Shown here: one piece after another, positions 18,484 through 43,778 of the stretch
Position numbering within the stretch: position 1 is the stretch's first letter
Layout of the letters: every line of letters starts with the position of its first letter
Assembly: GCA_041486695.1 (NCBI GenBank)
Contig: JBGPLZ010000002.1
Coordinates: 1,974-65,973, forward strand
Origin: Acidobacteriota bacterium
Lineage (GTDB): Bacteria > Acidobacteriota > Polarisedimenticolia > Gp22-AA2
Length of the DNA: 64,000 nucleotides
Direction: 5' to 3'
Program-made: the position numbers and the translations under genes
Notes under the pieces: model-generated
What the model saw: only the letters and a program-made list of their open reading frames with translations
Database searches by the model: none
Told to the model about the DNA's origin: nothing

Positions 18484-19305
18484 TCAGTGCAGCCCTCTGG
18501 GGAGGGTGACGGTGATCGCGGCGGAATTGTTCGAGTAGTCGGTCTCCTGGAAGAAATGTTCGGCGTTGACTTCGACCTCGAGGATGTAGTCACCCGCCGA
18601 CAGCCCGGTGACATCGATCCACTGGCCGTCGAACCACGCGGCGTAGAAATCGGCCTGGCAGACGCTCAGCCCCATGTCGTCGCAGGAGAAGTACCTGGGG
18701 CGATCCTTGCTGCCGGCGCAGACACCCTGCGTGTAGTGATAGACATCCACGACGCAGAACCCCTGCTTCCTGCCGGTGACGAGCTTCTTCGCCAGGTTCG
18801 GGTTGGCCACCAGGAGGTCGCGCGCGCATGAGGTCGGGTTCGTCTGGCGAAGGGCGAGCCATTGCGCGTAGTCCTTCGGAGTCCAGAGACGGTAATCGGA
18901 GTACTCCTTGAAGTGCGTGTGCCCGTGGCAGGTCACGAAGTCGAACCACTCGGGGTGATCCGTCGGCTTGCCGATGATCAAATCGCCCGGGCCGAGGTTA
19001 GGGGTAGCGGTGTCGAACCGTAGTAACCAGCGGTCGCCTGCGGTCACTTCCCCCTCGGCGACGGAGCAATCGGTCGAGGTCCAGGTCTCCTTGTTCAGTG
19101 CCAGGTTGGGGGGAATCTCCGAGCCGTCGACGATCAGGTCGGGACAGCCGTTCTTGTCGGAGCACGGGATGGCGGGCACGCAGGTCGTCTGGGTCTGAGC
19201 GGACGACGGGCGTGCAGCGGCGAAACCCCCGAACAGAACAAGCATCGAAACAAACACGACCCTGCAGAGAAGAGAGCGATCCAAGTCACACCTCCTGGGC
19301 GACAC
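18484..19305 (-). CDS. Secreted lysyl-oxidase-like (copper amine oxidase, LOX catalytic-domain family) protein
   Basis: His-rich copper-site-like segment FVTCHGHTHFKEY resembles the LOX WxWHxCHxHYH motif. Many conserved Cys, consistent with the LOX disulfide pattern. N-terminal signal-like region. The start is GTG at 19305; an alternative ATG lies at 19245 (MLVLFGG). Confidence 0.55.
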   Translation of the reverse strand: MSPRRCDLDRSLLCRVVFVSMLVLFGGFAAARPSSAQTQTTCVPAIPCSDKNGCPDLIVDGSEIPPNLALNKETWTSTDCSVAEGEVTAGDRWLLRFDTATPNLGPGDLIIGKPTDHPEWFDFVTCHGHTHFKEYSDYRLWTPKDYAQWLALRQTNPTSCARDLLVANPNLAKKLVTGRKQGFCVVDVYHYTQGVCAGSKDRPRYFSCDDMGLSVCQADFYAAWFDGQWIDVTGLSAGDYILEVEVNAEHFFQETDYSNNSAAITVTLPRGLH

Positions 19306-29009: not shown

Positions 29010-29280
29010 GGCCGCCGGACTCCGGTGGCGGCGTTGCGAATATTGCGTGGCGGTTTCCATCGTTCGGCAATTCTTGCGCCCGATGCATGATTTGCAGGAT
29101 GATAAGAGAGTTTCCGCCCGCTGCTTCGAGACAATTCGACCGCCTGCCAGAGAGGCTAATTGGGCCATAAATGCAGGGAAACGCCGTCCTCCGGTCGGCT
29201 GGAGTCGCCGAGGCCATCATTTTGGCGTGCGGTTTGCTCAGGGGGCAGTCGGGTCCACCTCCGGAGAAGGAGCGAGGAAT

Positions 29281-32200
29281 ATGAATCCAAGAAAATCAGG
29301 CCGCCTTCCCGTGAACTCCCGTTTCATGGCTGCGCTTGCCCTTGTCCTTCCCCTGTTGCTGGATTGGAGCACTGCCCGCGCGGCGGTCCAGTATCTGGGC
29401 AATGGCGCCCTGCAGAACGCCAATGGTGGCTGGGACCTGCCGGCGCAGGGCACCTGCCCGGCGGATCCCTCCAAGGTGACCCGTCCTGATTGTCTCGCGC
29501 TCAGGCTCAACATCGTGCAGGCGAGCTGCGTCGCTCCCAACCTCTCATGGACCACGGGCGGCGTCTGCAACGACCTGGTGAACACCACCCAGGGGGCCTG
29601 CCAAGCCGCGCCCGATCGCCTGTGGAACAGTGCTACCGGCGTCTGCGCGATCGTCATGAAGGACGACGACCGGAACAACGTCACCTGCGCGCTGCACGGC
29701 GGCACCTTCGTCGCGACGGGAACCTGCATCGGCGTCTGGATCATGCCCGCCCGTACCGCTTACACGCCCAACCTCCTCACCAGCAACAGCCCCGGAGATC
29801 AGTGTCTTCGGTGTCACAACGCCGAGACCCAGTACAACGGCACGCGGGTCCGGGACGTGGAGAACTTTCTGTACAGCGGGCACATGAACATGGCCAGGAA
29901 GGTGAAGGTCGGCATGCCATGGGGCGGTCCTCCTTTCAGCTGCAGCAGCGTTCTGTTCACCGACGAGCAGACGTGCGAGGAGAATGGCGCCCAGTGGAAC
30001 CCGACGGTCTATCCGTCCGACGATACCGGCAACACCTTCGACTGGATCAACGGCCGGATCAACGCCAGCGGTGGCCCGTACGATCTGGCCTGGATCTACG
30101 GTGACTGGCTGAGCCCGCTGCCGAGGGCGATCTACCGAGCTCCTGCCAGCTCGTCGCAGGTCTGCAGCGACCCGCGGTACTCCAACTCGACCTGCGTCGC
30201 GAACGGCGGGATCCTGATCAACAACGCCGGCGCCTCATATTCCTGCGCGCGGTGCCACACGACGGGCTGGACCAGCGATGCCACGATCAACACCGCGACG
30301 AACATCGATGGGAAGGACCCGGAGCTGTCGTTCCCCGGAATCACCTGGGACAGAAGCTCCAATGCCGGCTTCGGTGTGGTCAATCTTTCGGGCGGCGTGG
30401 CCAACGACCCCAACAAATATGCCTCCTGGGACCAGTACGGCATCGTGTGCACGAGGTGCCACAGCTCCGCGATCGACACGACCACCGGGACCGGCTCGCC
30501 GGCGCAGTACAGCGCGCCGGCCGGCATGTCGTCCCATCACAGCACCCTCACCGCCTCGGACGTCAGCAGCGGCGCCGGCTACTGCAGCGATTCACGCTTC
30601 ACCGCGCAGGCCCAGTGCGACGCCGCAGGCGCGGCTTGGTTGACGGCGTGCAGCATCGCCGGCGCGTGCAGCGCTCCGGCGTACACGACCTCCGGAAGCT
30701 GCCTGGCCAACGGCGGGAGTTGGACGAAGTACGACACCGCCGTGGCCTGCACGACGGCCGGCGGGACCTTCTATACCTCCTCCTGCAACCTCGCCGGTGT
30801 CTGCAATACTCTCAACCCCGCGCACTCGACCCAGGCGCTCTGCGAGGCGGCGGGCGGGCAGTGGGCCGCGGCCTCGGACATCGTCCGTTGCCTCGACATC
30901 CATGAGTACGGCAAGGAGAACGGCGTCGCGGCCTACACGGCCGCCGTCTGGACCGGTTCCAAAACGAACCGGGGCCCGATCATCACCCGCCTGTGCATGG
31001 ACTGCCACCGGCAGGAAACCTCCGGCATGCCCTACGCCAACGCCAGCGCCACCGCGGGGACCCTGGACACGGTCAACCCCGGTCTCTACCTCAAGGTCGG
31101 GCCGGCGCACAACACGGTCTCGTTCGTCAGCCATCCGCACGGCAACATGTTCCTGAACAGCCCGCACGGGAAATTCACCGGCACCTTCAATCAGATCGCG
31201 ACCGGGAAGTTCTCTTATGCCATGACCGGCGACTACAAGAGCTTCTTCCAGACCGATGGGGAGGCGGCCAACACCGGGAACGGCTGCACGGGATGTCATG
31301 ATGTCCACGAGAGCACGGTCCCCAAGACCAGCCCGTTCCCCGCCATTCGCGAAGAGTGCACGGAGTGCCACGCGAAGAACCTGAACGTGATCATGCATCC
31401 CCATGGCACCGGGACGCCGCTCGAGAACCTGGCGACCGATCCCGTCGAGTCCTGCGAAACGTGTCACATGCCCGGCGGACTGCACCTGTTCCGGGTCAAG
31501 GCGGATGCGGCCTACTCCACCTTCCCCAGCGGCGCTCTGACCGGCACGGTGAATGCCAACACCTCGCCGGACGGCACGTTCACCAACGCGGTCTGGGTCG
31601 ATATGGACCACTCGTGCGGCCAGTGCCACGGCGGCGGGACGGTGCAGGCCTCGACCACGGGCGGCATCCCGAACGGCAGCAAGGTGCTCACCGTCGCCGC
31701 CACGACCGGGTTCGCGGCCGGCGAACGGATTTCCGTCGCCGACGCCGGCAGCCTGAGCTATGACGACGTTGGTTCCGTCGTGAGTGGCGATTTCGAGACC
31801 TACATCGTCTCGGTGGTTCCGCCCGGCACTCTCAATCTGGCGGGCGCCGCGTCCGCCACCGTCAGCGGCAAAAGCGTTCTCCAGAACCCCACCAAGAACG
31901 GCGCGGGCTACATGACCAGGACGCAGCTGGCGAGCCTTGCGAAGGGCATCCACAACGACAAGCCGTACGTATCGTTCGGCGCCAAGCTGGGCAGCCCCAA
32001 CACGCTCACGGTCATGGTGGATGCGTCGGCCTCGACCTGCAGCGGCAGCAGCGCCAACTGCGACGCGTATGATTGGGACTGGAGCGACGGTTCGGCACAT
32101 GGTTCGGGCGTGACGGCGTCCCATACCTATGCAAGCGCGGGCGCAAAATCGATCACCCTGACCGTGGAGCAGTACGGGGTGAACGGGAATTCCCTCACCA

Positions 32201-32748
32201 GGACCGTCACGGTCTACGCTCCCGATGGCCCACCCGTTATCGGCAGCACCTGCACGTGGGATCCGAACACCTGGACCATGGCCCTGGCCGATACCTCGAC
32301 GGACACCGATGGCACGGGCGTGAAGCAGGTGACCGTCAACTGGGGCGATTACAGCCTACTCGCCAGTGACACGACGGCGCCTTTTGGGCCGTTCTCGCAT
32401 GCCTATCTCAATGTGGGCAGCTACGCGATCATCCACAAGGCGATCGACACCATAGGACAGCAGTCCACCGAGACGGCATGCACGGCGGCGCCGGCGTACT
32501 TTGCGATCGGCGGCACGGTGTTCGCGAGCGGTGGCATCACACCCGTGTCCTCGGCGGCCGTGACTCTGAGCAAGGGCGGCTCGGTCGTCAAGACGGTCTA
32601 TACCCTGGCCAACGGCACGTTCGCGGCTGGATTCCTGAAGCCGGGCACCTACACGCTCACGATCACCAAAGTCGGGTACACGTTCCCAGCGGTCGCGCCG
32701 ATCACCGTCGGACCGAGCAGTGCCGGAAACAACGTTTCGGCCATGTAG
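29281..32748 (+). CDS. Large secreted multiheme c-type cytochrome (8 CXXCH) with Cys-pair repeats, two PKD-like domains and a C-terminal CarbopepD_reg-like domain
   Basis: SD GGAGCGAGGAAT before the ATG. Signal peptide. Eight CXXCH sites: CLRCH, CARCH, CTRCH, CMDCH, CTGCH, CTECH, CETCH, CGQCH. Repeated C-x-A-x-GG-x-W/F...C modules. PKD-like segments (DWDWSDGSAHGSGVTASHTYASAGAKSITLTV; VNWGDYSLLASD...SHAY). C-terminal beta-sandwich-like region (GTYTLTITKVGYTF). 1155 aa. Confidence 0.75.
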   Translation: MNPRKSGRLPVNSRFMAALALVLPLLLDWSTARAAVQYLGNGALQNANGGWDLPAQGTCPADPSKVTRPDCLALRLNIVQASCVAPNLSWTTGGVCNDLVNTTQGACQAAPDRLWNSATGVCAIVMKDDDRNNVTCALHGGTFVATGTCIGVWIMPARTAYTPNLLTSNSPGDQCLRCHNAETQYNGTRVRDVENFLYSGHMNMARKVKVGMPWGGPPFSCSSVLFTDEQTCEENGAQWNPTVYPSDDTGNTFDWINGRINASGGPYDLAWIYGDWLSPLPRAIYRAPASSSQVCSDPRYSNSTCVANGGILINNAGASYSCARCHTTGWTSDATINTATNIDGKDPELSFPGITWDRSSNAGFGVVNLSGGVANDPNKYASWDQYGIVCTRCHSSAIDTTTGTGSPAQYSAPAGMSSHHSTLTASDVSSGAGYCSDSRFTAQAQCDAAGAAWLTACSIAGACSAPAYTTSGSCLANGGSWTKYDTAVACTTAGGTFYTSSCNLAGVCNTLNPAHSTQALCEAAGGQWAAASDIVRCLDIHEYGKENGVAAYTAAVWTGSKTNRGPIITRLCMDCHRQETSGMPYANASATAGTLDTVNPGLYLKVGPAHNTVSFVSHPHGNMFLNSPHGKFTGTFNQIATGKFSYAMTGDYKSFFQTDGEAANTGNGCTGCHDVHESTVPKTSPFPAIREECTECHAKNLNVIMHPHGTGTPLENLATDPVESCETCHMPGGLHLFRVKADAAYSTFPSGALTGTVNANTSPDGTFTNAVWVDMDHSCGQCHGGGTVQASTTGGIPNGSKVLTVAATTGFAAGERISVADAGSLSYDDVGSVVSGDFETYIVSVVPPGTLNLAGAASATVSGKSVLQNPTKNGAGYMTRTQLASLAKGIHNDKPYVSFGAKLGSPNTLTVMVDASASTCSGSSANCDAYDWDWSDGSAHGSGVTASHTYASAGAKSITLTVEQYGVNGNSLTRTVTVYAPDGPPVIGSTCTWDPNTWTMALADTSTDTDGTGVKQVTVNWGDYSLLASDTTAPFGPFSHAYLNVGSYAIIHKAIDTIGQQSTETACTAAPAYFAIGGTVFASGGITPVSSAAVTLSKGGSVVKTVYTLANGTFAAGFLKPGTYTLTITKVGYTFPAVAPITVGPSSAGNNVSAM

Positions 32749-32781
32749 GCGATGCGACACCAGGACATCATTGGAGGGACA

Positions 32782-33615
32782 ATGAACAGACTCGTGCGGG
32801 CTGGGCTGGTTGTGGCTGTCGGAGCATGCCTCGCGTCCTACGTCATGGCCTACACCGGCTCGTATACGCCGGGAGCGGGCCTCAACGACACGGTCCATGA
32901 TCTCGGAACGGCCAAGAACGGGATGAACTATGTGGCGATCCCGGCGGACCCTCAGCAGAGGACCTGCATCTTCTGCCACGCCCCGCACAACACCTACAAG
33001 CTGAGTCCGGCCAATGGCGGCCCCGGCGCGCCCGTCGGCGGCGGCCCGCAGGCTCCAGACGCCTTCGATTACCTGCCCCTGTGGAACCATGAGCTGACCG
33101 GCAACTATGCCTCCTACACCATGTACCAGAACGGACCGGGCGCGCCTCAGATCGGCGCGAAGGCCTCCCAGGCGATTCAGAGCGGCATGGTCCCGGGCAG
33201 CGTCTCCCTGCTCTGCCTCAGCTGTCACGACGGAAGCGTGGCCGTGAACTCGTACGGCAACGCCTCGCAGCTCACTGCGTCGCAGAGCAGCGGCGGCGGC
33301 ACGATCGGCGCCGCGTACCTGATCGGCAAGGACAACTATCTGGGGAACCACCATCCGATCGGCTTCAGCTACGACGCGGCGCAGTCGGTGGACCCCGAGA
33401 TCCGCGACGCCAATGTCGCCCAGCTGGGAGGCGCCGGGGCGGTGCGGGATCACCTGTACGGTGCGTCCAGCTCGATGATGGAGTGCGCGACGTGCCATTC
33501 GGTTCACAACAAGAGCAACACCGGTGAGACCCTCCTCTGGAGGAGCGATACGGCCAGCCGGCTCTGCCTGACCTGCCATGACAAGGGCACCGATCCGGGC
33601 GTGGTGACTCCGTAG
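32782..33615 (+). CDS. Tetraheme c-type cytochrome, doubled-CXXCH family
   Basis: SD GGAGGG 4 nt before the ATG. Signal peptide. CIFCHAPHN, CLSCHDGS, CATCHSVHN, CLTCHDKG. The N-terminus is homologous to the N-terminus of the cytochrome at 38710..40569. Confidence 0.7.
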   Translation: MNRLVRAGLVVAVGACLASYVMAYTGSYTPGAGLNDTVHDLGTAKNGMNYVAIPADPQQRTCIFCHAPHNTYKLSPANGGPGAPVGGGPQAPDAFDYLPLWNHELTGNYASYTMYQNGPGAPQIGAKASQAIQSGMVPGSVSLLCLSCHDGSVAVNSYGNASQLTASQSSGGGTIGAAYLIGKDNYLGNHHPIGFSYDAAQSVDPEIRDANVAQLGGAGAVRDHLYGASSSMMECATCHSVHNKSNTGETLLWRSDTASRLCLTCHDKGTDPGVVTP

Positions 33616-33830
33616 TTCGAGAACTGAGTGAACCCGGCGAGAAGGGAATGGCCTCCATCCCCTTCTCGCCTTTTGCGGCCATCCCTTCCTCCACCCTCCG
33701 CGCCATCGCGAGATGGTACAATTCCGCTTCTTGCGATCCTCCGCGCTGGCCGGGACTTTTGAGACGCAACTCCGGCCGCCCGGGCCATCCCACCTTCGAT
33801 CCATGGCTGAAACATGTGGCGGGCGGAATC

Positions 33831-35027
33831 ATGAGACTTCGCGAGGTGGAGGTGGCTGGAGCGCCGCAGATCGGGGAAAGACGAACGAGGCGAACGGGCG
33901 CCTTCGGAGCGATCGTCCCCGCGGTCCTGGCGCTCCTGGCGGCGGCCTGCGCCACGCCCCAGGTCAAGAAGGCGGCCTCCGTCTACTTCCCGCCCTCGCC
34001 GGAGCTCCCCCGTATCCAGTACCTGACATCATTCACCGGTCTGAAAGACGTCGAGGAACAGTCTGCGTTCGACAAGTTCGTCGTGGGCGAGAAACAGGAT
34101 GTGAAGCTGGACAAGCCCTATGGCGTCGCCATCTACGATGGGAAGATCTATGTCTGCGACACCAACGCCACGGTCATCGTTTTCGATCTGAAGGGCAGGA
34201 CCTTTGGCACGCTGAAGGGGGCGGCGGGCCCCGGACAGCTCCTCGGGCCCGTCAACATCAGCATCGAGCGGGATGGCACCAAGTACGTGGCCGACCCCGT
34301 TCGCGGCCAGGTCGTCGCCTTCGACCGGGATGACGGGTACCTCAAAGCCTATGGCGAGCCTGGAGCATGGAGACCGGTTGATGCCGTGCCGTTCCACGAC
34401 CGGCTCTATGTTGCCGACCCCTCGACCGGCCTGGTCAAGGTGTTTGACATCGCCAGCGGCGAGCTCCTCAAGGCGATAGGGGACAAGGGGGAACCCTCCG
34501 AGCGGCTCGACCGGCCCACCAACCTGGCCTTCGACTTCGAAGGGTACCTCTACGTGACCGATGTGGGGCGATTTCAGGTCGTCAAGTTCGACCGGGATGG
34601 TCATTTCAAGGCGACATTCGGAAGGCCCGGCGACAACCTTGGACACTTTGCCCGGCCCAAGGGCATCGCGCTTGATCGTGAAGGTCGTCTCTACGCGGTC
34701 GACGCGTCTTTCAACAATGTCCAGGTCTTCAGCGAGGGAGCGCGGCTGCTGATGTTCTTCGGAGGAGCGGGGGATCAGCCTGGAAGCTTCCTGCTGCCCG
34801 CCAAGGTCGTGATCGACTACGACAACCTGAAGTACTTCCAGAAATACGTCCAGCCCGATTTCGAGATTCAGTATCTGGTCCTGGTGACGAGTCAGTTCGG
34901 ACCCCGACTGGTGAATGTCCTGGCCTATGGGCGGCAGAAGGGGGCCAGGTACCCAAGCGATGAAGAGATCTTGAAGCTGATGGAACAGAAGCGGCAGAAG
35001 GAAATGGAGAAAACACCGAAGGAGTGA
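33831..35027 (+). CDS. NHL-repeat six-bladed beta-propeller (lipo)protein
   Basis: Signal peptide with a lipobox-like LLAAAC. Repeated NHL-type blades (YGVAIYDGKIYVCDT, YVADPVRGQVVAFD, LYVADPSTGLVKVFD, LYVTDVGRFQVVKFD, LYAVDASFNNVQVF). Confidence 0.65.
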   Translation: MRLREVEVAGAPQIGERRTRRTGAFGAIVPAVLALLAAACATPQVKKAASVYFPPSPELPRIQYLTSFTGLKDVEEQSAFDKFVVGEKQDVKLDKPYGVAIYDGKIYVCDTNATVIVFDLKGRTFGTLKGAAGPGQLLGPVNISIERDGTKYVADPVRGQVVAFDRDDGYLKAYGEPGAWRPVDAVPFHDRLYVADPSTGLVKVFDIASGELLKAIGDKGEPSERLDRPTNLAFDFEGYLYVTDVGRFQVVKFDRDGHFKATFGRPGDNLGHFARPKGIALDREGRLYAVDASFNNVQVFSEGARLLMFFGGAGDQPGSFLLPAKVVIDYDNLKYFQKYVQPDFEIQYLVLVTSQFGPRLVNVLAYGRQKGARYPSDEEILKLMEQKRQKEMEKTPKE

Positions 35028-35064
35028 TCCGAAAGATGCCCCGGAGTCTGCCCCTCGAGATCCC

Positions 35065-35601
35065 ATGAGAACCCGGACGGTGGCGATGTTGGTGTGCGTG
35101 GTGGCCGCGCTGACGGCCGGCTGTAACGCCACGACGCGCCACAAGGTTCTCGCGGCGCTGTTCGACGGCGTTCCACCACTCAGAGAGACCGTCCGGTCCG
35201 AGACGAACCAGGGCGCCGAAGGCACGGGGGCCGTGGGGCCGCGGCCGGCGACGCTCTACGAGCATGGACCCTACGCGGCGCGCTTGTGCAGCGCCTGTCA
35301 CGACGCGGCGGCCACCAATGCCCTCGTCGCGCCGAAAGAGACGCTGTGCTTACGCTGCCACGACCTGGGGCTGGTCAAGAGATACGTGCATGGTCCTCTC
35401 GCCTCGGGAGGCTGCCTCGTCTGCCACGATCCGCACAGCTCCCAGTATCAACACCTTCTGGTATCGGAATCCGCCGGCTTCTGCCTGCACTGCCACGACC
35501 GGCAGGACGTGGCGAGAATCGAAGCACACGGCGGCTCGGCGGACAGCTGCACGTCCTGCCATGATGCCCATATGTCGGACAGAAGGTACTTGTTGAAGTG
35601 A
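35065..35601 (+). CDS. Pentaheme c-type cytochrome (c7/c3-like), probable periplasmic lipoprotein
   Basis: Signal peptide and lipobox-like LTAGC. CSACHD, CLRCHD, CLVCHDPHSSQYQHLL, CLHCHD, CTSCHDAHMSD. Confidence 0.7.
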   Translation: MRTRTVAMLVCVVAALTAGCNATTRHKVLAALFDGVPPLRETVRSETNQGAEGTGAVGPRPATLYEHGPYAARLCSACHDAAATNALVAPKETLCLRCHDLGLVKRYVHGPLASGGCLVCHDPHSSQYQHLLVSESAGFCLHCHDRQDVARIEAHGGSADSCTSCHDAHMSDRRYLLK

Positions 35602-35611
35602 AGGCGGGACT

Positions 35612-37639
35612 TTGCGTATCAAGAATGGTCTCATCCTGATGGCAGTGATCGGCGTCGTGAGCGACGTCGCAGTCGCCGGGGGATCCGACTTCTTGCCCAG
35701 GCCGACGAGGAACGGGGCGTTCGTCGACCTGTTCACCTCCTACGAGCGCGACGACAATCCCGGCAGCGTACGGTCGTTCGGCTGGCACGACACCTTCTTC
35801 AAGGAAAAGCTGACCTTCTTTTCGAACGGATACTTTTATCATCCGCGGTTTCTCCAGTACCAGGTGTCCGTGGCCGGGGCCCTGAAGCAGGAGAGGTTCG
35901 AAGCCTCCTATCTCAACCCCCAGGACTGGCGGCATGGAGAGGGCGTGGAGTATGACGGCCGGTTGTTCTTCCTTCCCGAACACCCCTACAATCTCGAGCT
36001 CTACGCGCTTCGGTACGAGCCCCTCTTCAAGACTCAGGCCGCGACGGAGCACGACAGCCTTCAATCGGGATGGGGAGCGTTGTTCCAGTACCGACAAAGG
36101 CCGTGGTTCTCGCACGCGAAATTGAGCGACAGCACCACCCGATCGGGGATCCTGACCTCGAATGTCAGGAGGCTCGGTCTCGACGGCGAGTACGTCACTC
36201 GATTAGGGACCGCAGGCCAGTTCTCCCTGAATGCCTCCGTGAACCCCACGCACTTCTCGAACTCCCAGGGACTCGACGGGCGCTCGACGGAATTCCTGTT
36301 CGGAAACCTTATAAACCTGAAGCGCGTCCGGCTGAACTCGAGCCTCACCCGGAACACGTCGGACCAGGACAATGGTCTCAGCGGGCGGTTTGAGAACGAT
36401 CAGTTCACCTGGTACGAGCTTCTGAGCCTTTACTTCCCGTTGAACTTCCGCAGCGATCTTTCCTTTCGCCGGCAGGAGAATGAGAGCACGATCCCGGACA
36501 CCCTCACTTCGATCGATCGCACCTTGTCCGATACGAGTGAGCAGGTCCAGCTCGACATCGTGCACCGGTTGTTCCGGAGCCTCGACACCACCTACAGGTT
36601 CCTGGACATTTCGCGTGATTCCTCCGGCGGGGAATCGACCTTCCGGTCGAATTCACTCTTCGTCAACTACACCAAGATGATCCCGGACGGACGAGTCCTC
36701 GCGGGCGTGAACCTGGGAAGGAGCCGAAGCGACAATAAGGGCCGGGCGGATGTCGTGGATGAGCCCCATCCCGGAACCGCGGTGCCGGGAGTGTTCACCC
36801 TGGCGCAGCAGAATGCCGATCCGCGCAGCGTCGCCGTGTTCATCAAGTCGCCGCTGTCGCCATTTCAGGCGATTCTCCTGGTCGAAGGCCCGCACTACGT
36901 GGTGACGCCGGTGCTGAACACCCTGCAGATCACCATGCTGGACCTGCCACCGCAGTTCACCGTGCCGGGAACCTATGACTTGTTCGTCGATTACTCGCTG
37001 TCGACGGGCGAGTTCGGGCTGGGGACGGACAACGTCGGCTGCAACCTGAGCGTCGAGCTGCTGAATACCATGTTGACCCCGTACTACAGTTATGCGGCGA
37101 TCCGTTCGACGGTCGAGTCCGGGTCGTTTCCCGGGACTCCTCTTGATTCGACGACGCACACGGTCGGTCTGCGGTTTCACCAGGGACCGCTGCGGGCGAC
37201 CGGGGAATACCAGAACCTCGATTGGGACATCAGCCCTTATCAGGCCTGGAGAAGCGAGGTCCAGTACATCAGCTCGCTGAATCCGAGGACCAGGGTCTAC
37301 CTGAGCGGAGCCTACGTCAACAAGTACTACTCCCACGGCACCTCGGTGGCCTTCAGCGAGCCGTACACCGATGAGAACGCCACCGCCTTCGGAAGCATCC
37401 AGAGGCAGTTCGCTCCGCGCAGTCTGGTTCTGTCCGGGGGAGGGTCGTTCACGCGCCTGCGAGGCCGGGTGGACGGCAATGCGTACACGCTGAACGGCTC
37501 GCTGAGCTGGAAGATCGGCCGGTTGAGTCTGGCGGCCGGCGCGAGCGCGTACAAATCCGATACGCGCGGATTCAATGCCTTCTCGAGCGACCGTTTCCAC
37601 GAATACTATTACGTCTCTCTTCGGAGGGAGTTCTTTTGA
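35612..37639 (+). CDS. Outer-membrane beta-barrel (porin-like) protein, candidate porin partner of the adjacent cytochromes
   Basis: TTG start in the track with a plausible signal peptide (RIKNGLILMAVIGVVSDVAVA-GG). Alternating amphipathic beta-strand pattern throughout. C-terminal ...YYYVSLRREFF with a terminal Phe, typical of OM beta-barrels. The 675-aa size is comparable to MtrB/MtoB-class porins. Confidence 0.5.
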   Translation: MRIKNGLILMAVIGVVSDVAVAGGSDFLPRPTRNGAFVDLFTSYERDDNPGSVRSFGWHDTFFKEKLTFFSNGYFYHPRFLQYQVSVAGALKQERFEASYLNPQDWRHGEGVEYDGRLFFLPEHPYNLELYALRYEPLFKTQAATEHDSLQSGWGALFQYRQRPWFSHAKLSDSTTRSGILTSNVRRLGLDGEYVTRLGTAGQFSLNASVNPTHFSNSQGLDGRSTEFLFGNLINLKRVRLNSSLTRNTSDQDNGLSGRFENDQFTWYELLSLYFPLNFRSDLSFRRQENESTIPDTLTSIDRTLSDTSEQVQLDIVHRLFRSLDTTYRFLDISRDSSGGESTFRSNSLFVNYTKMIPDGRVLAGVNLGRSRSDNKGRADVVDEPHPGTAVPGVFTLAQQNADPRSVAVFIKSPLSPFQAILLVEGPHYVVTPVLNTLQITMLDLPPQFTVPGTYDLFVDYSLSTGEFGLGTDNVGCNLSVELLNTMLTPYYSYAAIRSTVESGSFPGTPLDSTTHTVGLRFHQGPLRATGEYQNLDWDISPYQAWRSEVQYISSLNPRTRVYLSGAYVNKYYSHGTSVAFSEPYTDENATAFGSIQRQFAPRSLVLSGGGSFTRLRGRVDGNAYTLNGSLSWKIGRLSLAAGASAYKSDTRGFNAFSSDRFHEYYYVSLRREFF

Positions 37640-37658
37640 TGCGCGCGCCAGGATCGCC

Positions 37659-38729
37659 ATGATGAGGACACGGCTCGAAAAAATATCCGCCAGAGGGTGG
37701 ATGGCGGCGTCGGGTGCGCTCCTCGGCCTCCTCTCGGGATGCGTGTCGGCCTGGACGCTGCGTACGGCGCAGCCGGGAGTTTCCCTGCAGTGGCCCTATC
37801 AACCGAATGCGGCCAAGATCACTTACGTCGAGTCCTTGACGGGCTTCTCGGAGCACCGGCGATCGGCCGCCGTCTTGAAGACCTTCGTCTATGGCAAGGA
37901 CAAAGAGGACGTGAACGGATTCATCCTGCCCGTAGCGGTCGCCACCGGACCCGATGGACGGATCGCAGTCGCAGACATGGGCCGGCGGTGCGTCCATCTG
38001 TTCGTGCCGGCCGGACAGACCTATCTGCGCCTCGACGGGTCCAAGAAGGAAAAGATCGGCTCGCCCGTGGGAGTGATCTTCGACGACGAAGACCGTCTCT
38101 ATGTCGCGGATTCGGCAGGCAAGGTGTTCGCGTTCGCCGGAGATGGTCGCCATCTTTTCACCCTGGAGAAGACTGAGGCCGGCCCGTTGCAGCGGCCGAC
38201 CGGCCTCGCCTACAGCCCCGTCACGAAGCTCGTGTATGTCGTCGACACCCTTGCCAACCGCGTGCATGCTATGAACACGAGGGGGGACGTCGTTTTCTCG
38301 TTCGGCGAGCGCGGGACGGGCGGCGGCGGGTTCAACTTCCCCACCCATATCTTCTGGTCGTCGGGGAAGCTGTACGTCGCCGATTCGCTCAATTTCAGGA
38401 TCAGCATCTTCGACGAGACGGGAAAGCCTCTGAGCGTCTTCGGCCGGCACGGCGACGGGTCGGGGGACCTGGCGCTGCCCAAAGGGATCGCCGTCGACAA
38501 GGACGGCATCATCTACGTCGCGGACAGCATGTTCGACAACGTTCAGTTGTTCGATGATCGCGGCGAGTTCCTCCTGACCCTCGGCAGGAGAGGGGTGGAC
38601 TTCGGCGAGATGTGGTTGCCCTCGGGCATTCATATCAGCGACAAGGACGAGCTCTATGTCTGTGACACCTACAACCGGCGCGTGCAGGTCTTTCACATCA
38701 CGGAGCGGTATGGACATGGCGGGTCCTGA
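37659..38729 (+). CDS. NHL-repeat beta-propeller lipoprotein (paralog of 33831..35027)
   Basis: SD AGGA 5 nt before the ATG. Canonical lipobox LLSGC. NHL blades (IAVADMGRRCVHLF, LYVADSAGKVFAF, VYVVDTLANRVHAM, LYVADSLNFRISIFD, IYVADSMFDNVQLFD, LYVCDTYNRRVQVF). Confidence 0.7.
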   Translation: MMRTRLEKISARGWMAASGALLGLLSGCVSAWTLRTAQPGVSLQWPYQPNAAKITYVESLTGFSEHRRSAAVLKTFVYGKDKEDVNGFILPVAVATGPDGRIAVADMGRRCVHLFVPAGQTYLRLDGSKKEKIGSPVGVIFDDEDRLYVADSAGKVFAFAGDGRHLFTLEKTEAGPLQRPTGLAYSPVTKLVYVVDTLANRVHAMNTRGDVVFSFGERGTGGGGFNFPTHIFWSSGKLYVADSLNFRISIFDETGKPLSVFGRHGDGSGDLALPKGIAVDKDGIIYVADSMFDNVQLFDDRGEFLLTLGRRGVDFGEMWLPSGIHISDKDELYVCDTYNRRVQVFHITERYGHGGS

Positions 38730-40569
38730 GTCCACGACAGCTCGTCGTCTGGTCGCGAGGCTTGTTCTAGGCCTGGCGTGCTCCTGCCTCGGAGCGGGAC
38801 TCCCGGCCCAGACGACCTCGGACATGGTGAACACGAAGCACAATCTGTCGGTCTCGGGCACGGGCTCGATCCGGGCCCTGACGGAGACGCGGATCTGCAT
38901 CTTCTGCCACACGCCGCACAACGCTGCGCCCCTGTCGCCGTTGTGGAACAAGGATCTCGGACCCGAGGTTTACATCGTCTACGCCAGTCCCACGCTGAAG
39001 GCCGGTCCGCTCCCGCAGCCCACGGGCCCGACGAAACTGTGCCTCAGTTGTCACGATGGCACGATCGCCATGGGCGGCGTCCTGAACCCGGCCGCGGGCA
39101 TCACGATGGCCGGCAGTGACCGGTTCGCCCCGGGCAGCCTCTCCGATTTCGGTCTCGATCTGTCCGGGCACCATCCCGTGTCGTTTCCGTATTCCAGCGC
39201 TCTTCCGAACGCGGAGCTGGCGCCGGTGCCTCCGCCCGATCTCGTGTTCGGAGGCGCCGACGAAGTGCACTGCATCACCTGCCACGATCCGCACAATGAT
39301 CAGTACGGACGATTCCTGGTCAAGGACAATCACTACTCGGCGCTATGCACCACCTGTCACCAGATGACCGGGTGGGTCGGCTCGGCCCATGCGACCTCGA
39401 CCGCGTCGATGGTGGGCATCCTCCCGAGGCCTCCCAAGACCTGGCCCACCTACAGCCAGCTGAACGAATGGGGATGTGAAGCGTGCCACACGCCCCACTT
39501 CGCCCCGACCGCGGAACAGCTGCTCAATTTCACCGCGGCGCCGCCGTCCCCGTTCTCGTGCACCACGGCCGGGTGCCACACATCCGATCCGGCCCCGGTG
39601 CACACCCCGGCCACTCCGGGCCCCTCGGGATCGGGCGTCTCCATGGTCTCCGGGAGGGCCGACATCGCGCACCAGATCGGCAAATATTCGGCGCACCGGG
39701 AGAATCCCGGCGGGATGCCGACGGCGTTTCGGAGCGCGGCAGGAGCCTACCGTTCGGGGCGGCTCGGCGTGGGTTGCGCCGACTGTCACAATCCGCATCT
39801 GGTCAATGACGTGAGGACCGAGGCACCCCATGCCTCAGGCATGCTCAAGGGCGTGAGCGGAGTCGACCGGAATGGCGGGAGGGTGGCCTCGGTCACCTAT
39901 GAATACGAGGTGTGCTTCAAGTGCCACGGCGATGACAGCCCGGATCTCGACTACGTGCCTCGCGTGCTCACCGTCACGAACACGCGCCTGGCCTTCGACC
40001 CGTCCAATCCTTCCTATCACCCGGTGGTCGCCATGGGAAGGACCCTGAATGTGCCGAGCATCCCGTCGCAGTTCGAGCCGACGATGAGCGCGTCGCAGCA
40101 GATCTATTGCACCGCCTGTCACGCCGACGATGAGGGCGGGTCGCGAGGACCGCATGGGTCCTCGTTCGCCCCGATTCTGAAGCAACGCTATGAGACGACG
40201 GACAATACGGCGGAAAGCTACGACAACTACGCCCTGTGCTACCGGTGCCACGACCGGGCCAGCATTCTCAGCGACGCAAGTTTCGGGAAGAAGATGATCC
40301 GGACCACGCCCTCCGGGGGCGGGCACAGCGGACATCTCGCGGCGGGCGCGCCGTGCTCGGCATGTCACGACCCGCACGGTGTGTACGAGGGCGGTGCGGC
40401 GGTCCCGTCGGGGACCGGTTCCCACACCCACCTGATCAACTTCGACAGCCGGATCGTCCTGCCGCTGCCGGGGAAGCAGCTCCCGGTCTTCCAGGATGCC
40501 GGTCTGTTCTCAGGCAACTGCACTCTCGTGTGCCACGGTGTGACCCACGACGCAACGTCCTACCCCTGA
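38710..40569 (+). CDS. Multiheme c-type cytochrome (10 CXXCH plus 2 variant CX3-4CH sites), doubled-CXXCH N-terminus
   Basis: Start overlaps the end of the upstream NHL gene. Signal peptide. CIFCH, CLSCH, CITCH, CTTCH, CEACH, CADCH, CFKCH, CTACH, CYRCH, CSACH, plus CTTAGCH and CTLVCH. Confidence 0.75.
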   Translation: MDMAGPESTTARRLVARLVLGLACSCLGAGLPAQTTSDMVNTKHNLSVSGTGSIRALTETRICIFCHTPHNAAPLSPLWNKDLGPEVYIVYASPTLKAGPLPQPTGPTKLCLSCHDGTIAMGGVLNPAAGITMAGSDRFAPGSLSDFGLDLSGHHPVSFPYSSALPNAELAPVPPPDLVFGGADEVHCITCHDPHNDQYGRFLVKDNHYSALCTTCHQMTGWVGSAHATSTASMVGILPRPPKTWPTYSQLNEWGCEACHTPHFAPTAEQLLNFTAAPPSPFSCTTAGCHTSDPAPVHTPATPGPSGSGVSMVSGRADIAHQIGKYSAHRENPGGMPTAFRSAAGAYRSGRLGVGCADCHNPHLVNDVRTEAPHASGMLKGVSGVDRNGGRVASVTYEYEVCFKCHGDDSPDLDYVPRVLTVTNTRLAFDPSNPSYHPVVAMGRTLNVPSIPSQFEPTMSASQQIYCTACHADDEGGSRGPHGSSFAPILKQRYETTDNTAESYDNYALCYRCHDRASILSDASFGKKMIRTTPSGGGHSGHLAAGAPCSACHDPHGVYEGGAAVPSGTGSHTHLINFDSRIVLPLPGKQLPVFQDAGLFSGNCTLVCHGVTHDATSYP

Positions 40570-40627: not shown

Positions 40628-41983
40628 TCAATGGGGTTTGACGGCGGGTTTCGGCGCGCCGGGCTTGCGGCCCTGGCTCTGCCGATCGTAGTTCTGCGGC
40701 CGGTGACAACCCGGCGTACACCCGCCTCCCGTATCGGTCTTGACGAACTTGATCGGGAGTTTCCATTTCCCGAATGACACGCTCTCCGCGACGAGCTTGG
40801 GGGCACTGCTGCCGTGAAGCTCGTGGCACAACGTGCAGCTGCGGCCTTTCTGTCTGTTGTTGACGTGCAGAAAGTGGAGGTTCCTCTCGCCGTCCCGGAA
40901 GCCGGTCGCGAACGAGGTGTCCGGGTACTGGACCATGTCGCGCTTATGACAGCTGAAACATAGCGCGAACTCCGTACCGGTGTACGGCACGTAGGCGGTC
41001 GTGGGGAATTCCTTGACGAGCAGCTTCGGGTACTGGCTGCCGTGCGGGTCGTGACAGGGAGTGCACCTCCCCTCGCTGATCGGGCGATGAAGCGTGGTCA
41101 TGGCATTGGTGATGACGGACGTGTGACAACCGAGACAGAGGACTCTTTCCTGCTTCAGCAGCAGCTTCGCGTTGTCGCTGGCATGTGGCGAATGGCACGC
41201 GATGCAGGCCTTGTCGTCCTGGACCGCGGCGTGGACGACGCTCGCCTTCTGGAGTTTGTCTGCGATCGCGTCGTGGCATTGGAAGCACAGCCGGGCCCCT
41301 TCGTCGGACAGCAGCTTGGGGTGCGCGGTGCCGTGCGGATTGTGGCAGGAGGTGCAGCCTCCGGCCAGAGCCGGGTGCACGTTCTTCTTCTTCACCGCGG
41401 CCTGGACATCGAGATGGCACCCGAAGCACAGCTCGTCGCCCGGTTTCACCAGCAGAGACTTGACGTCGGACTCGTGCGGGGTGTGGCACGCGGTGCAGTC
41501 TCCCGCCGCGACCGGGCCGTGAGGGTACTTTGAGCTCCCCTGCCCGGCGTGACAGGACTCGCAGAGATCCTTCATCGGCTGCACCAGCAGCTTGGGCTGA
41601 TCCGAGGCGTGCGGGTCGTGGCACGTGGTGCACATCCCTTCCTTGGCGGGGGGATGGACGTGACTCTTCTTCCCGAACGCGTCGTGGCAGGTGGTGCAGA
41701 GCTGCGGGGGCTCCTGAAGGAGCTTGAAGGTCTTGACGCCCTTCCTGGGGTGCGGCGTCGCGGTGGATTCATGACAGCTGTCGCAGGATTCCACCGGCGG
41801 GTGCACCGTCTTGCCGCGCACGAGCGTCGCGTGACACTGGGCAGCCACGCACCCGTTCTGCGCCACGGCGTCGGGCCCGGGAAGAAACAGGCTGCTCATC
41901 ACGAGGGTGGCGATCCGAAGACCGAAACGGAACCGCCGTCGATCGGCCGACCGGGAGTTGTCTCTCATCGTCGCAGGGTTCAC
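40628..41983 (-). CDS. Multiheme c-type cytochrome (13 CXXCH plus 2 variant sites), c7-like repeat polymer
   Basis: Signal peptide. Repeated units C-x-x-C-H-x-P-H-x-S/T-x(3)-K-L-L, for example CTTCHDPHASDQPKLL, CTACHTPHESDVKSLL, CIACHSPHASDNAKLL, CTPCHDPHGSQYPKLL. Variants CVAAQCH and CTPGCH. Convergent with the upstream cytochrome, 58-bp gap. Confidence 0.75.
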   Translation of the reverse strand: MNPATMRDNSRSADRRRFRFGLRIATLVMSSLFLPGPDAVAQNGCVAAQCHATLVRGKTVHPPVESCDSCHESTATPHPRKGVKTFKLLQEPPQLCTTCHDAFGKKSHVHPPAKEGMCTTCHDPHASDQPKLLVQPMKDLCESCHAGQGSSKYPHGPVAAGDCTACHTPHESDVKSLLVKPGDELCFGCHLDVQAAVKKKNVHPALAGGCTSCHNPHGTAHPKLLSDEGARLCFQCHDAIADKLQKASVVHAAVQDDKACIACHSPHASDNAKLLLKQERVLCLGCHTSVITNAMTTLHRPISEGRCTPCHDPHGSQYPKLLVKEFPTTAYVPYTGTEFALCFSCHKRDMVQYPDTSFATGFRDGERNLHFLHVNNRQKGRSCTLCHELHGSSAPKLVAESVSFGKWKLPIKFVKTDTGGGCTPGCHRPQNYDRQSQGRKPGAPKPAVKPH

Positions 41984-42188
41984 CGACCCCCGCAGGTTCC
42001 TCGCGACCTGGGGTCCTGACGAAGTTTATCCTGATGCGGGTCTCGACGATAGTCCGTTCCTGTCGATCGGACGTCGGAGATCATGTCGCACAGAGCATCG
42101 ATCCACCGCGACGAAGCCACCGAGTGTCGGTTGCTCTATCATGGGGCCGCATCGCGGTTCGTCGGAATGGGGAGCGCTTCACAGCGTC

Positions 42189-43778
42189 ATGATGGTCGAG
42201 CAATCGCAGGATGCCGGCAGCAGGCCCGCGGGCGGGAGGCTTCGCGGCCTCCTGGGATCGCCGCGCTCGTACTGGCTCACGCGCTTCGTGATCCTCCGGC
42301 TGCTCGGTCTCGTCTACTTCGTCGCCTTCCTGTCGCTGGCGCAGCAAGTGCTGCCGCTCATCGGACGCGACGGTTTGCTGCCGGCCCACCTGTTCCTCGA
42401 TCGCGTCGCGGCGCACTTCGGGTCGCGCCTCGGCGGCTTCGAGCAGATCCCGAGCCTCTTCTGGCTCGGGCTTCCGGATCGCTGGCTCGCCGGCCTCGCC
42501 TGGGCCGGCGCGGGCTTGTCACTCCTCGTGCTCCTCGGGTTCGCCAACGCGCTCCTCATGCTGCTGCTCTGGGCGCTCTACTTCTCCTTCGTCCAGATCG
42601 GTCAGGACTGGTACGGCTACGGCTGGGAGATCCAGCTGCTCGAGACCGGCTTTCTCGCCATCTTTCTCTGCCCGCTGCTCGATGGCCGGCCCTTCCCGCG
42701 CCGAGCGCCGCCGGCCGCGGTCGTCTGGCTGTTTCGCTGGCTCATCGTCCGGATCATGCTGGGAGCGGGGCTCATCAAGCTGCGGGGCGATTCCTGCTGG
42801 CGCGATTTGACCTGTCTCGATTTCCACTACGAGACGCAGCCGATCCCGAATCCTTTGAGCCGGACCCTCCACTTCATGCCGCGCTGGTTCGGGAAGCTCG
42901 GGGTGCTCACCAACCACCTGAGCGAGCTGGTCGCGCCCTGGTTCGCCTTCGGACCACGCGCGGCCCGGCACGTCGCCGGCCTCCTGATGCTGTCATTCCA
43001 GGTCGTCCTGATCGCCAGCGGCAACCTGTCGTTCCTGAACTGGCTGACGATCGTGCCGATCCTCGCCTGCTTCGACGATTCGCTGCTGCGCCGCGTGCTT
43101 CCAAGGCGGCTGGTCGCGGCGGCTGACCGCGCCGCCGGGCGGGCCCGGCCGTCCCGCGCGCAGAATGTCGCCGTCATGGCGCTGGTCGCGGTCGTGATGG
43201 TGCTCAGCATTGATCCGGCGATGAACCTGTTGTCGCGCCACCAGGCGATGAACACCTCGTTCAACCGTCTCGCTCTCGTGAACACCTATGGCGCTTTCGG
43301 CAGCGTCGGGCGGGAGCGGCCGCAGATCATTTTCGAGGGGACCGACGACCCGACGCCGACGGAGCAAAGCGTCTGGAAGCCGTATGACTACAAGTGCCAG
43401 CCCTCCGATCCAAACCGGAGGCCGTGCGTCATCTCGCCCTACCACTATCGTCTCGACTGGCAGATCTGGTTCGCCGCGATGTCGAGCCCCACGCGCTACC
43501 CCTGGACGCTGCACCTCGTCTGGAAGCTGCTGCACAACGATCCGGGCGCCCTGGGGCTCCTGGCCGGCAATCCGTTCCCCGACGCGCCGCCGCGATTCGT
43601 GCGGGCGCAGCTCTACCGCTACGAGTTCGCGCCGCCCGGCGATCCGCGCGGCGCCTGGTGGCGGCGGACGCTGGTCGGAAGCTGGCTCCCGCCGCTGTCA
43701 GCCGACGATCCGCGGCTGCGGCGCTGGCTCGCCGCCTATGGCTGGCTCACCTCCGACCCGGACCTCAGGCCTCTTTGA
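42189..43778 (+). CDS. Lipase maturation factor (LMF1/DUF1222)-family polytopic membrane protein
   Basis: Multiple TM helices. Conserved LMF-like segments (WLTRFVILRLLGLVYFVAFLSL; QDWYGYGWEIQLLETGFLAIFLCP; FHYETQPIPN). The start is uncertain: ATG at 42189/42192 or 42141. Confidence 0.55.
   Translation: MMVEQSQDAGSRPAGGRLRGLLGSPRSYWLTRFVILRLLGLVYFVAFLSLAQQVLPLIGRDGLLPAHLFLDRVAAHFGSRLGGFEQIPSLFWLGLPDRWLAGLAWAGAGLSLLVLLGFANALLMLLLWALYFSFVQIGQDWYGYGWEIQLLETGFLAIFLCPLLDGRPFPRRAPPAAVVWLFRWLIVRIMLGAGLIKLRGDSCWRDLTCLDFHYETQPIPNPLSRTLHFMPRWFGKLGVLTNHLSELVAPWFAFGPRAARHVAGLLMLSFQVVLIASGNLSFLNWLTIVPILACFDDSLLRRVLPRRLVAAADRAAGRARPSRAQNVAVMALVAVVMVLSIDPAMNLLSRHQAMNTSFNRLALVNTYGAFGSVGRERPQIIFEGTDDPTPTEQSVWKPYDYKCQPSDPNRRPCVISPYHYRLDWQIWFAAMSSPTRYPWTLHLVWKLLHNDPGALGLLAGNPFPDAPPRFVRAQLYRYEFAPPGDPRGAWWRRTLVGSWLPPLSADDPRLRRWLAAYGWLTSDPDLRPL

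Follow-up and report, generated by a model that had tools for sequence, protein, structure and literature searches.

Nanowires of the cytochrome OmcE are encoded in a published minimal cluster of two multihaem cytochromes, two beta-propeller lipoproteins, OmcE itself and a large beta-barrel, and nearby barrel and propeller genes serve as the criterion for nanowire-competent OmcE homologues (bioRxiv 10.1101/2025.10.22.684050). OmcE homologues were reported there from five phyla, Acidobacteriota not being among them; OmcE-like clusters in Acidobacteriota have already been noted recently in a preprint. We analysed a stretch of 64,000 nt, here called the window, from an Acidobacteriota bacterium (GTDB lineage Acidobacteriota; Polarisedimenticolia; Gp22-AA2; assembly GCA_041486695.1, contig JBGPLZ010000002.1, positions 1,974 to 65,973). 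It carries genes B to G, the predicted products of which supply the whole parts list of the OmcE clusters of Geobacter sulfurreducens and Desulfuromonas soudanensis. Directly upstream, and unlike in those clusters, which have no A-like protein, stands gene A for a 1155-aa octahaem protein with PKD domains. With a probability of roughly 0.55, we read A as an octahaem c-type cytochrome that is exported by Sec, belongs to an undescribed family and forms a lineage-spanning add-on to an OmcE-type nanowire/porin cluster.

An outer multihaem cytochrome in a porin or nanowire cluster is an already known kind of system. The EET1 system of Acidobacteriota, described in Terriglobales and UBA7540 (peat Terriglobia), has a porin, an NHL propeller "scaffold" and a 13-haem OmcE-like cytochrome, and its text and supplements contain no PKD, carboxypeptidase-like or octahaem component (bioRxiv 10.64898/2026.05.27.727921). 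It equals genes E, F and G of the window by composition, not by sequence comparison. The Uet cluster of Tenderiales and Gallionella is also similar by parts, with the tetrahaem extracellular UetA, the beta-barrel UetC, the NHL proteins UetH and UetI and the larger extracellular multihaem protein UetJ (bioRxiv 10.1101/2022.05.06.490989, PMC10734462). UetJ would hold the role of an extra large outer cytochrome that we propose for A, a likeness taken from the description and not from sequence. Uet differs in that UetJ is an undecahaem protein without other domains, in additional trihaem c7 proteins, a cupredoxin and a peptidyl-prolyl isomerase, and in its proposed function in electron uptake.

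OmcZ of G. sulfurreducens (PMC9473688) resembles A in architecture only, with an octahaem domain followed by tandem Ig-like domains. Its haem domain has about 260 aa compared with about 750 aa in A, there is no sequence similarity, and A has 13 putative disulfides and no neighbouring OzpA protease. MtrC, OmcA and UndA of Shewanella are outer-surface multihaem proteins that combine haem and beta-rich domains and have a porin-cytochrome conduit as partner, as is proposed for A. They are lipoproteins with 10-11 haems, whereas A has eight haems and no lipobox, and Foldseek gave no match to them. MtrC-type proteins carry a conserved disulfide. Membership of A in the MtrC family was rejected, since the Pfam model Mtrc-MtrF_II-IV scored 19.8 bits against a cut-off of 30 and a lipobox was absent.

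Gene A is the open reading frame (ORF) at 29281-32748 on the forward strand, and its translation gives a product of 1155 aa. The gene and its start are described by the following features.

29281..32748, forward strand: gene A, octahaem cytochrome of 1155 aa (translation, motif count, Pfam, homologues)
29267..29272, forward strand: Shine-Dalgarno-like AAGGAG, 8 nt before the ATG at 29281 (read from the sequence)
29281..29382, forward strand: Sec (type I) signal peptide, residues 1-34, cleavage after ARA (sequence inspection)

AAGGAG, 8 nt in front of it, supports the ATG at 29281 as the true start over the one farther upstream at 28969. The ATG at 28969 was rejected: it has no ribosome-binding site, it would not provide a signal peptide, and the homologues align to the Met encoded at 29281. 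This Met is in the same column as the first Met in 96% of the homologues. The N-terminus reads MNPRKSGRLPVNSRF-MAALALVLPLLL-DWSTARA/A (the slash marks the cleavage site), with a basic n-region, the core AALALVLPLLL and cleavage between ARA and A. An AxA-type signal peptide without a lipobox is the pattern kept across the 77 aligned homologues. An earlier note, made from the sequence alone, had tied its view of A as a surface protein to a functional signal peptide, and inspection supported this point: A has a type I signal peptide, which recurs in its homologues. A sigma-54-type -24/-12 element (TGGCGT-N5-TTGCT) is found at 29223-29238 on the forward strand, 44 nt before the start codon; about 0.006 such patterns are expected per 510 nt. 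No such element was present upstream of the 34 gene A homologues examined.

The mature protein comprises a haem-free N-terminal domain, three widely spaced haem motifs, a haem-dense core and four C-terminal beta-sandwiches. Confidence of the AlphaFold2 (AF2) models is given as predicted local distance difference test (pLDDT).

29383..29775, forward strand: N-terminal haem-free Cys-rich domain, residues 35-165, about four divergent Cys modules (alignment, AF2 pLDDT 82-93)
29803..29817, forward strand: haem motif 1, CLRCH, residues 175-179 (motif; invariant in 77/77)
30244..30258, forward strand: haem motif 2, CARCH, residues 322-326 (motif, alignment)
30448..30462, forward strand: haem motif 3, CTRCH, residues 390-394 (motif, alignment)
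30994..31629, forward strand: haem-dense core, motifs 4-8 (CMDCH 572, CTGCH 669, CTECH 693, CETCH 725, CGQCH 779; motifs, alignment)
31648..31890, forward strand: first beta-sandwich, residues ~790-870 (AF2 secondary structure, pLDDT >90; Foldseek matches to tandem Ig-like adhesins; no Pfam assignment)
31954..32214, forward strand: PKD domain, residues 892-978 (Pfam PKD_4, E = 5e-9; PDB matches to collagenase PKD domains)
32233..32490, forward strand: second PKD-like beta-sandwich, residues ~985-1070 (AF2 strands; the family profile spans two consecutive PKD domains of ColH)
32506..32721, forward strand: CarboxypepD_reg (transthyretin-like) domain, residues 1076-1147 (Pfam, E = 3e-8)

Eight CXXCH motifs start at residues 175, 322, 390, 572, 669, 693, 725 and 779, and exactly eight were present in each of the 77 aligned homologues. 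A motif scan found no CX3-4CH or CXXCK variants in the gene A product. Seven His outside the motifs (201, 419, 629, 676, 706, 735, 891) are invariant in this alignment, as are M204 and M730; for His 610 and 618 the conservation is at least 96%. The seven invariant and two near-invariant His are sufficient in number for bis-His ligation at all eight haems, and all eight haems are probably ligated in this way. H610, H618, H629, H676, H706 and H735 are the conserved candidates for distal ligands in the haem-dense core. Pfam Cytochrome_C7 and Paired_CXXCH_1 matched residues 656-729 above their cut-offs.

The C-terminal assignments also exceeded the Pfam cut-offs (PKD_4, 36.5 bits against 27; PKD, 26.0 against 23.5; CarboxypepD_reg, 34.4 against 32.3), and the invariant H891 is located just upstream of the PKD domain. 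This agrees with the earlier description of a 1155-aa octahaem protein with PKD domains and a CarbopepD_reg-like C-terminus: there are eight CXXCH motifs, two PKD-type domains and one CarboxypepD_reg domain. Residues 35-560 had no Pfam match above cut-off, and nothing in NCBIfam reached its cut-off on the gene A product.

Structure comparison gave the same division. The full-length AF2 model (pLDDT 84.9) matched only tandem Ig-like adhesins and fibres in Foldseek (SdrD, GhpA, SiiE, fibronectin), through the C-terminal ~365 residues. Since the C-terminus dominated this search, residues 35-795 were modelled separately (pLDDT 84.7, predicted template modelling score 0.85). The haem region had no match with E < 1 in the PDB or BFVD. 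NrfB was the sole solved multihaem cytochrome matched by the family profile in the PDB, by a marginal stretch of paired CXXCH motifs. Alignment of this region to a known family had been named earlier as an argument against novelty; the N-terminal 750 aa matched no Pfam family, no NCBIfam family and no solved structure. The A family is undescribed, and its ~750-aa haem domain without a domain or structure match is new. According to the model, the C-terminal tandem beta-sandwiches resemble those of bacterial adhesins.

The gene A product contains 42 Cys, 26 of them outside the haem motifs. The modules with Cys pairs around a GG-x-W/F core, which the earlier note had pointed out, are real and non-random, with four strict occurrences of the pattern C.{2,4}G.[WF].{2,10}C in A and 0.16 expected in shuffled sequences. 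The register had to be changed. The unit common to A and unrelated proteins is C-x10-C-x3-GG-x-W, and the third Cys after the W, which is usual in the A family, is extra to it. We built a hidden Markov model (HMM) of the repeat from unrelated proteins outside the A family only. It scored 55.9 bits on A, and the maximum in 500 shuffles was 8.7 bits. Clear copies were found at residues 220-241, 294-311, 433-455, 461-482 and 512-529. Among 8148 ORFs of the related loci the HMM picked out the A-family ORF of nearly all loci and scarcely any other ORF.

29938..30003, forward strand: Cys-loop unit, residues 220-241, C221-x10-C232-EENGAQW (repeat HMM, i-Evalue 7e-4)
30160..30213, forward strand: Cys-loop unit, residues 294-311, C295-x9-C305-VANGGI (repeat HMM)
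30577..30891, forward strand: tandem Cys-loop array, residues 433-537, 10 Cys (repeat HMM; copy number differs among homologues; AF2 pLDDT 89-95)

The proposed distribution of at least eight modules between the first three haems held only in part. About four divergent units precede haem 1 (residues 59-149), two lie between haems 1 and 2, none between haems 2 and 3, and three to four between haems 3 and 4. In each unit of A, AF2 placed a short helix centred on the second Cys, followed by the GG and a strand bearing the W.

Conservation of the modules in homologues, which the earlier note had made a point of, was confirmed: the majority of the non-haem Cys reach at least 90% conservation across the 77 sequences, with 99-100% for Cys 59, 71, 83, 96, 107, 122, 136 and 149. 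Gain and loss of C221 and C232 coincide across the homologues (phi = 1.0). C295 and C305 are both present in 39 of 77 sequences and both absent in the remainder (phi = 1.0). The central array has 8, 10, 12, 14, 16 or 18 Cys in 76 of the 77 homologues and an odd number in one. Because the pairs 221/232 and 295/305 change together and the central counts are even in 76/77, we read the Cys of A as paired, which would amount to about 13 disulfides. Genes related to disulfide formation add to this reading. A thioredoxin fusion protein of 755 aa (VKOR-thioredoxin/AhpC-TSA, window 6684-8951, forward strand) represents a DsbB-replacing disulfide-forming system of the same genome. In eight loci in which an A homologue stands alone without the OmcE cluster, a gene for a DsbA-like thioredoxin lipoprotein is located upstream on the same strand.

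L018 8758-9819, with equivalent positions in L010, L014, L015, L016, L020, L022 and L030, same strand as the A homologue: DsbA-like lipoprotein gene

An exhaustive search revealed four unrelated proteins that carry only the Cys-loop repeat (P0203, P0221, P0229 and P0230). P0203 has the N-terminus of a T7-type tail fibre (PHROG "tail protein", E = 3e-20). P0221 shows the N-methylation motif of prepilins, and a member of its cluster is annotated as a prepilin-type protein of Methylococcaceae. The unit of these proteins has exactly two Cys and reads C-[ST]-x-P-x-[YF]-T-T-x-x-x-C-x-x-x-G-G-x-W with a period of ~24 residues. No Pfam model for the C-x10-C-x3-GG-x-W repeat was matched when A and the outside proteins were scanned. 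In the index of 5.8 billion proteins, the word search of which is ill-suited to a repeat, a two-unit profile gave no matches and the repeat array of the pilin gave three short ones. The repeat is uncatalogued, and its occurrence in a phage tail fibre and a pilin-like protein as well as in A is new. Two A homologues have further peculiarities: P0153 has additional Cys modules inserted in its C-terminal CarboxypepD_reg region, and "GDNDGVCETGETC" elements are repeated in the N-terminal part of P0184.

A search of 5.8 billion proteins gave at least 147 homologues of A, none of them from a cultured bacterium. The best 120 of these at least 147 were mostly near full length and 42-86% identical, and almost none of the matches listed had a functional name. 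For the N-terminal 526 residues, only 124 proteins with E <= 1e-3 were found among 1.84 billion cluster representatives. Scanning one genome per species (185,579 species) identified 76 loci, all 76 in metagenome-assembled genomes and none in a cultured organism. Most were labelled Thermoanaerobaculia, Acidobacteriota or Holophagales and some Binatia or "Deltaproteobacteria", and Nitrospirota contributed more distant relatives. In the Nitrospirota loci L048, L051, L055, L057 and L072 the alignment begins at about residue 174 or later. As these matches begin near residue 174, the N-terminal haem-free domain of Cys modules seems to have been added in the Acidobacteriota-type proteins only.

The operon is the most informative fact about gene A. 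A is the first gene of a tight cluster, A to G, on one strand, and gene H follows on the other.

32752..33615, forward strand: gene B, 287-aa tetrahaem OmcE homologue, candidate nanowire subunit, 3 nt after A (PDB and profile matches)
33648..35027, forward strand: gene C, NHL beta-propeller with lipobox LAAAC (Pfam NHL, DUF5128); the true start is probably downstream of 33648
35065..35601, forward strand: gene D, 178-aa pentahaem lipoprotein, LTAGC (motifs, sequence)
35612..37639, forward strand: gene E, 675-aa putative outer-membrane beta-barrel (C-terminus ...YYYVSLRREFF; position as the "large beta-barrel" of OmcE clusters)
37575..38729, forward strand: gene F, second NHL beta-propeller lipoprotein, LLSGC, probable start near 37659 (Pfam, sequence)
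38656..40569, forward strand: gene G, 637-aa cytochrome with 10 CXXCH and 2 CX3-4CH, N-terminal 200 aa OmcE-like (motifs)
40628..41983, reverse strand: gene H, DmsE/MtrA-like periplasmic multihaem cytochrome, 13 CXXCH + 2 (NCBIfam, paired_CXXCH)

The product of gene B matched the G. sulfurreducens OmcE filament (PDB 7tfs) over its full length with E = 1.8e-14 and the 16-chain entry 9yuq with E = 2.9e-15. A profile of 25 B homologues matched OmcE with E = 2.2e-27, and four further haem-ligating His (H49, H79, H200/201, H252) are invariant in these 25 sequences. Over residues 36-236 the gene G product matches OmcE better (7tfs, E = 5.4e-23) than does the separately encoded gene B product, and the ~400 aa behind this part contain 6-8 further haem motifs. 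G, a fusion-like cytochrome, might itself initiate or cap a filament. With NHL repeats and lipoboxes in C and F, five haems and a lipobox in D, 10+2 motifs in G and the putative barrel E, genes B to G correspond by their predicted parts to the published minimal OmcE cluster. The product of gene E had zero matches in Pfam, NCBIfam and the PDB; the gene is syntenic in ~25 loci, and its position and C-terminus suggest an outer-membrane barrel. Gene H, syntenic in many loci, scored 162 bits with the NCBIfam model decahem_SO, below the curated cut-off of 192.2, and has seven paired_CXXCH stretches. The GC content is 0.615 at window 34001-38000 (genes C to F) and ~0.67-0.70 in the flanks. Lateral acquisition of the cluster is compatible with the low GC content and with the presence of the cluster in several phyla.

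We compared 39 species-level loci with a near-full-length A homologue, 19 of which have at least 8 kb on both sides. An OmcE-like gene follows directly downstream of A in 22 of the 39, and genes C to G are then present wherever the contig extends far enough. Both B and E are present in 14 of the 19 loci with long flanks. The genomes with A-B loci are labelled Acidobacteriota, Binatia and "Deltaproteobacteria"; some Nitrospirota loci also have an OmcE-like cluster, in other arrangements. The arrangement of A followed by B to G is also found on a 3.8-Mb chromosome of Thermoanaerobaculia (L001), where the A homologue is 47% identical and genes for cytochrome maturation (ResB, CcsA-like) and a sigma-54 activator are located upstream of the cluster. 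A and B are apparently translationally coupled. The recurrent placement of A before an OmcE homologue is new. When the similarity scores of A were compared with those of B, E and G across 17 loci as a test for co-evolution, the correlation was not significant.

On either side of the cluster, the window contains ordinary metabolic genes. A homologue of the eukaryotic lipase maturation factor LMF1 (LMF1 and LMF1_C, E = 5e-62; window 41907-43778, forward strand) adjoins the cluster; it is not syntenic in the other loci. A lysyl-oxidase-like gene is located at window 18484-19305 on the reverse strand (Pfam Lysyl_oxidase, E = 6e-20); this domain is rare among bacteria. The ORF for a phosphoketolase (XFP) at window 12419-15676, forward strand, has ~300 extra N-terminal residues as called, and the call is probably over-extended.

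Taken as an accessory of the OmcE-type system, A is most likely a component for extracellular electron transfer and adhesion. This and our other functional statements on A build on sequence, context and predicted structure from uncultured organisms. Haem attachment of c-type cytochromes takes place outside the cytoplasm. After export and haem attachment, ~13 disulfides would form in the C-x10-C-x3-GG-x-W loops and stiffen the ~750-aa haem domain, which would bear a chain of eight, probably all bis-His, haems. A would be displayed beyond the outer membrane alongside the OmcE-like subunit B, and the 675-aa barrel together with the two NHL propeller lipoproteins would provide the machinery for assembly or anchoring. 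Electrons would be exchanged through the haem chain, with the OmcE-like filament or conduit on one side and a redox partner outside the cell, solid or polymeric, on the other, and A may interact with B, G or E. Electrons could flow outwards, for reduction of iron, manganese or humic substances, or inwards, as proposed for Uet. The four C-terminal beta-sandwiches (one unassigned, two PKD-type, one CarboxypepD_reg) would tether A to its partner or to the cell surface. The extracellular location gains indirect support because the repeat also occurs in tail-fibre-like and prepilin-type proteins, the C-terminus is adhesin-like and the gene heads an OmcE-type cluster. The view taken in the earlier note, of a surface or extracellular cytochrome that may bind minerals or polysaccharide, is thus supported in part.

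Several observations weigh against this reading. Neither a lipobox nor a recognisable sorting tag is present in A, and no secretion route was identified for it. It also contains no OmcE-like domain: BLASTP gave nothing significant, and hhalign aligned only a 36-column stretch of paired CXXCH motifs with a probability of 64%. The first 560 residues hold only three haems, and a continuous eight-haem wire is assumed. The described OmcE clusters of Geobacter and Desulfuromonas function without an A-like protein (bioRxiv 10.1101/2025.10.22.684050). Five of the 19 loci with long flanks carry A without any B to G gene within 10 kb, so the adjacent cluster is not strictly needed by A. These stand-alone loci belong to a Holophagales/Thermoanaerobaculia clade, and their proteins end near residue 1060, without CarboxypepD_reg.

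The lack of an identifiable outer-membrane translocation signal besides the Sec signal peptide would also fit a protein that stays in the periplasm, as an electron carrier or store linking quinol oxidation at the inner membrane to a barrel-embedded conduit. Disulfides are formed in the periplasm, so that disulfide-rich proteins can reside there, and large periplasmic multihaem proteins exist, such as the predicted periplasmic subunit of PCC3 (PMC10734462). Against this, the cluster already holds a haem-dense DmsE/MtrA-like candidate for such a role in gene H, and the haem density of A is low, with 8 haems per ~1120 mature residues. The tandem beta-sandwiches with PKD and CarboxypepD_reg domains and the repeat common to tail fibres and pilins are typical of surface proteins. 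We consider the periplasmic location unlikely.

A sub-case of the reading of A as an add-on to the OmcE-type system is that A sits at an end of the OmcE-like filament, as its tip, cap or base adaptor. A would dock with one of its own ends on the terminal OmcE-like subunit, for example by a spare conserved His for the open haem, and the C-terminus would contact the mineral. Other pili as a rule carry tip adhesins that have Ig-like domains. The gap between A and the OmcE homologue is 3 nt and the order A-B is conserved. The conserved non-motif His and Met of A (H201, M204, H419, H420, H610, H618, H629, H676, H706, M730, H735, H891) exceed the needs of eight haems. The OmcE preprint asks what forms the filament tip and has no candidate in the operons of Desulfuromonadia (bioRxiv 10.1101/2025.10.22.684050). 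On the other hand, a structural basis for docking is not evident in a protein without an OmcE-like domain, a nearby OmcE gene is missing for some A homologues, and gene G, with its OmcE-like N-terminal domain and extra haems, is a more natural candidate for a cap or initiator. We regard the tip function as doubtful. Just as speculative is its bolder form, in which A, as an octahaem "tip adhesin" or a base adaptor built on an uncatalogued disulfide-loop repeat common to tail fibres and pilins, would be the terminal piece so far missing from the OmcE nanowires of Acidobacteriota and allied uncultured lineages; it would cap the filament and provide its electrical and physical contact with minerals or organic matter.

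The gross layout of signal peptide, eight haems and C-terminal tandem Ig-like domains is the same as in OmcZ (PMC9473688) and would allow A to be a pro-protein from which the beta-sandwiches are cleaved off and of which the octahaem part self-polymerises into its own nanowire. No OmcZ chain was among the PDB matches of the A sequence or of the family profile at E <= 10, and the haem domain of A is about three times the 258 residues built in the OmcZ filament model. The ~45 window ORFs scanned include no subtilisin/OzpA-like gene (peptidase_S8), and the invariant H891 beyond the first beta-sandwich argues against a clean removal of the C-terminus. An OmcZ-like precursor, for which we see very little chance, was rejected for the lack of OmcZ homology and of an OzpA-like gene among these ORFs and for H891.

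A secreted or periplasmic enzyme that, like octahaem tetrathionate reductase (OTR), nitrite reductase (ONR), sulfite reductase (MccA) or hydroxylamine oxidoreductase (HAO), acts on a soluble substrate would account for the number of haems, and the large non-haem domains could form a substrate pocket, but this highly improbable reading was rejected, as A has no sequence or Foldseek similarity to solved octahaem enzymes of any kind, only standard CXXCH motifs with no CXXCK or extended motif, conserved His enough for haems that appear six-coordinate throughout, and an operon that is an electron-conduit or nanowire cluster and not a catalytic one.

How cytochrome nanowires start, end and are anchored, and how they are linked to an external redox partner, is an open question. 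A offers a concrete candidate for study here: it is conserved, apparently co-translated, has adhesin-type domains and stands before an OmcE homologue in dozens of uncultured bacteria from soil, sediment and groundwater. The clusters extend the OmcE-type machinery, as judged from its predicted parts, to Acidobacteriota (Thermoanaerobaculia), Binatia and other lineages that have no cultured electroactive members. The disulfide-loop repeat, which no domain database lists, is shared by a cytochrome, a pilin-like protein and the tail fibre of a phage, which represent three different kinds of fibre-type protein.

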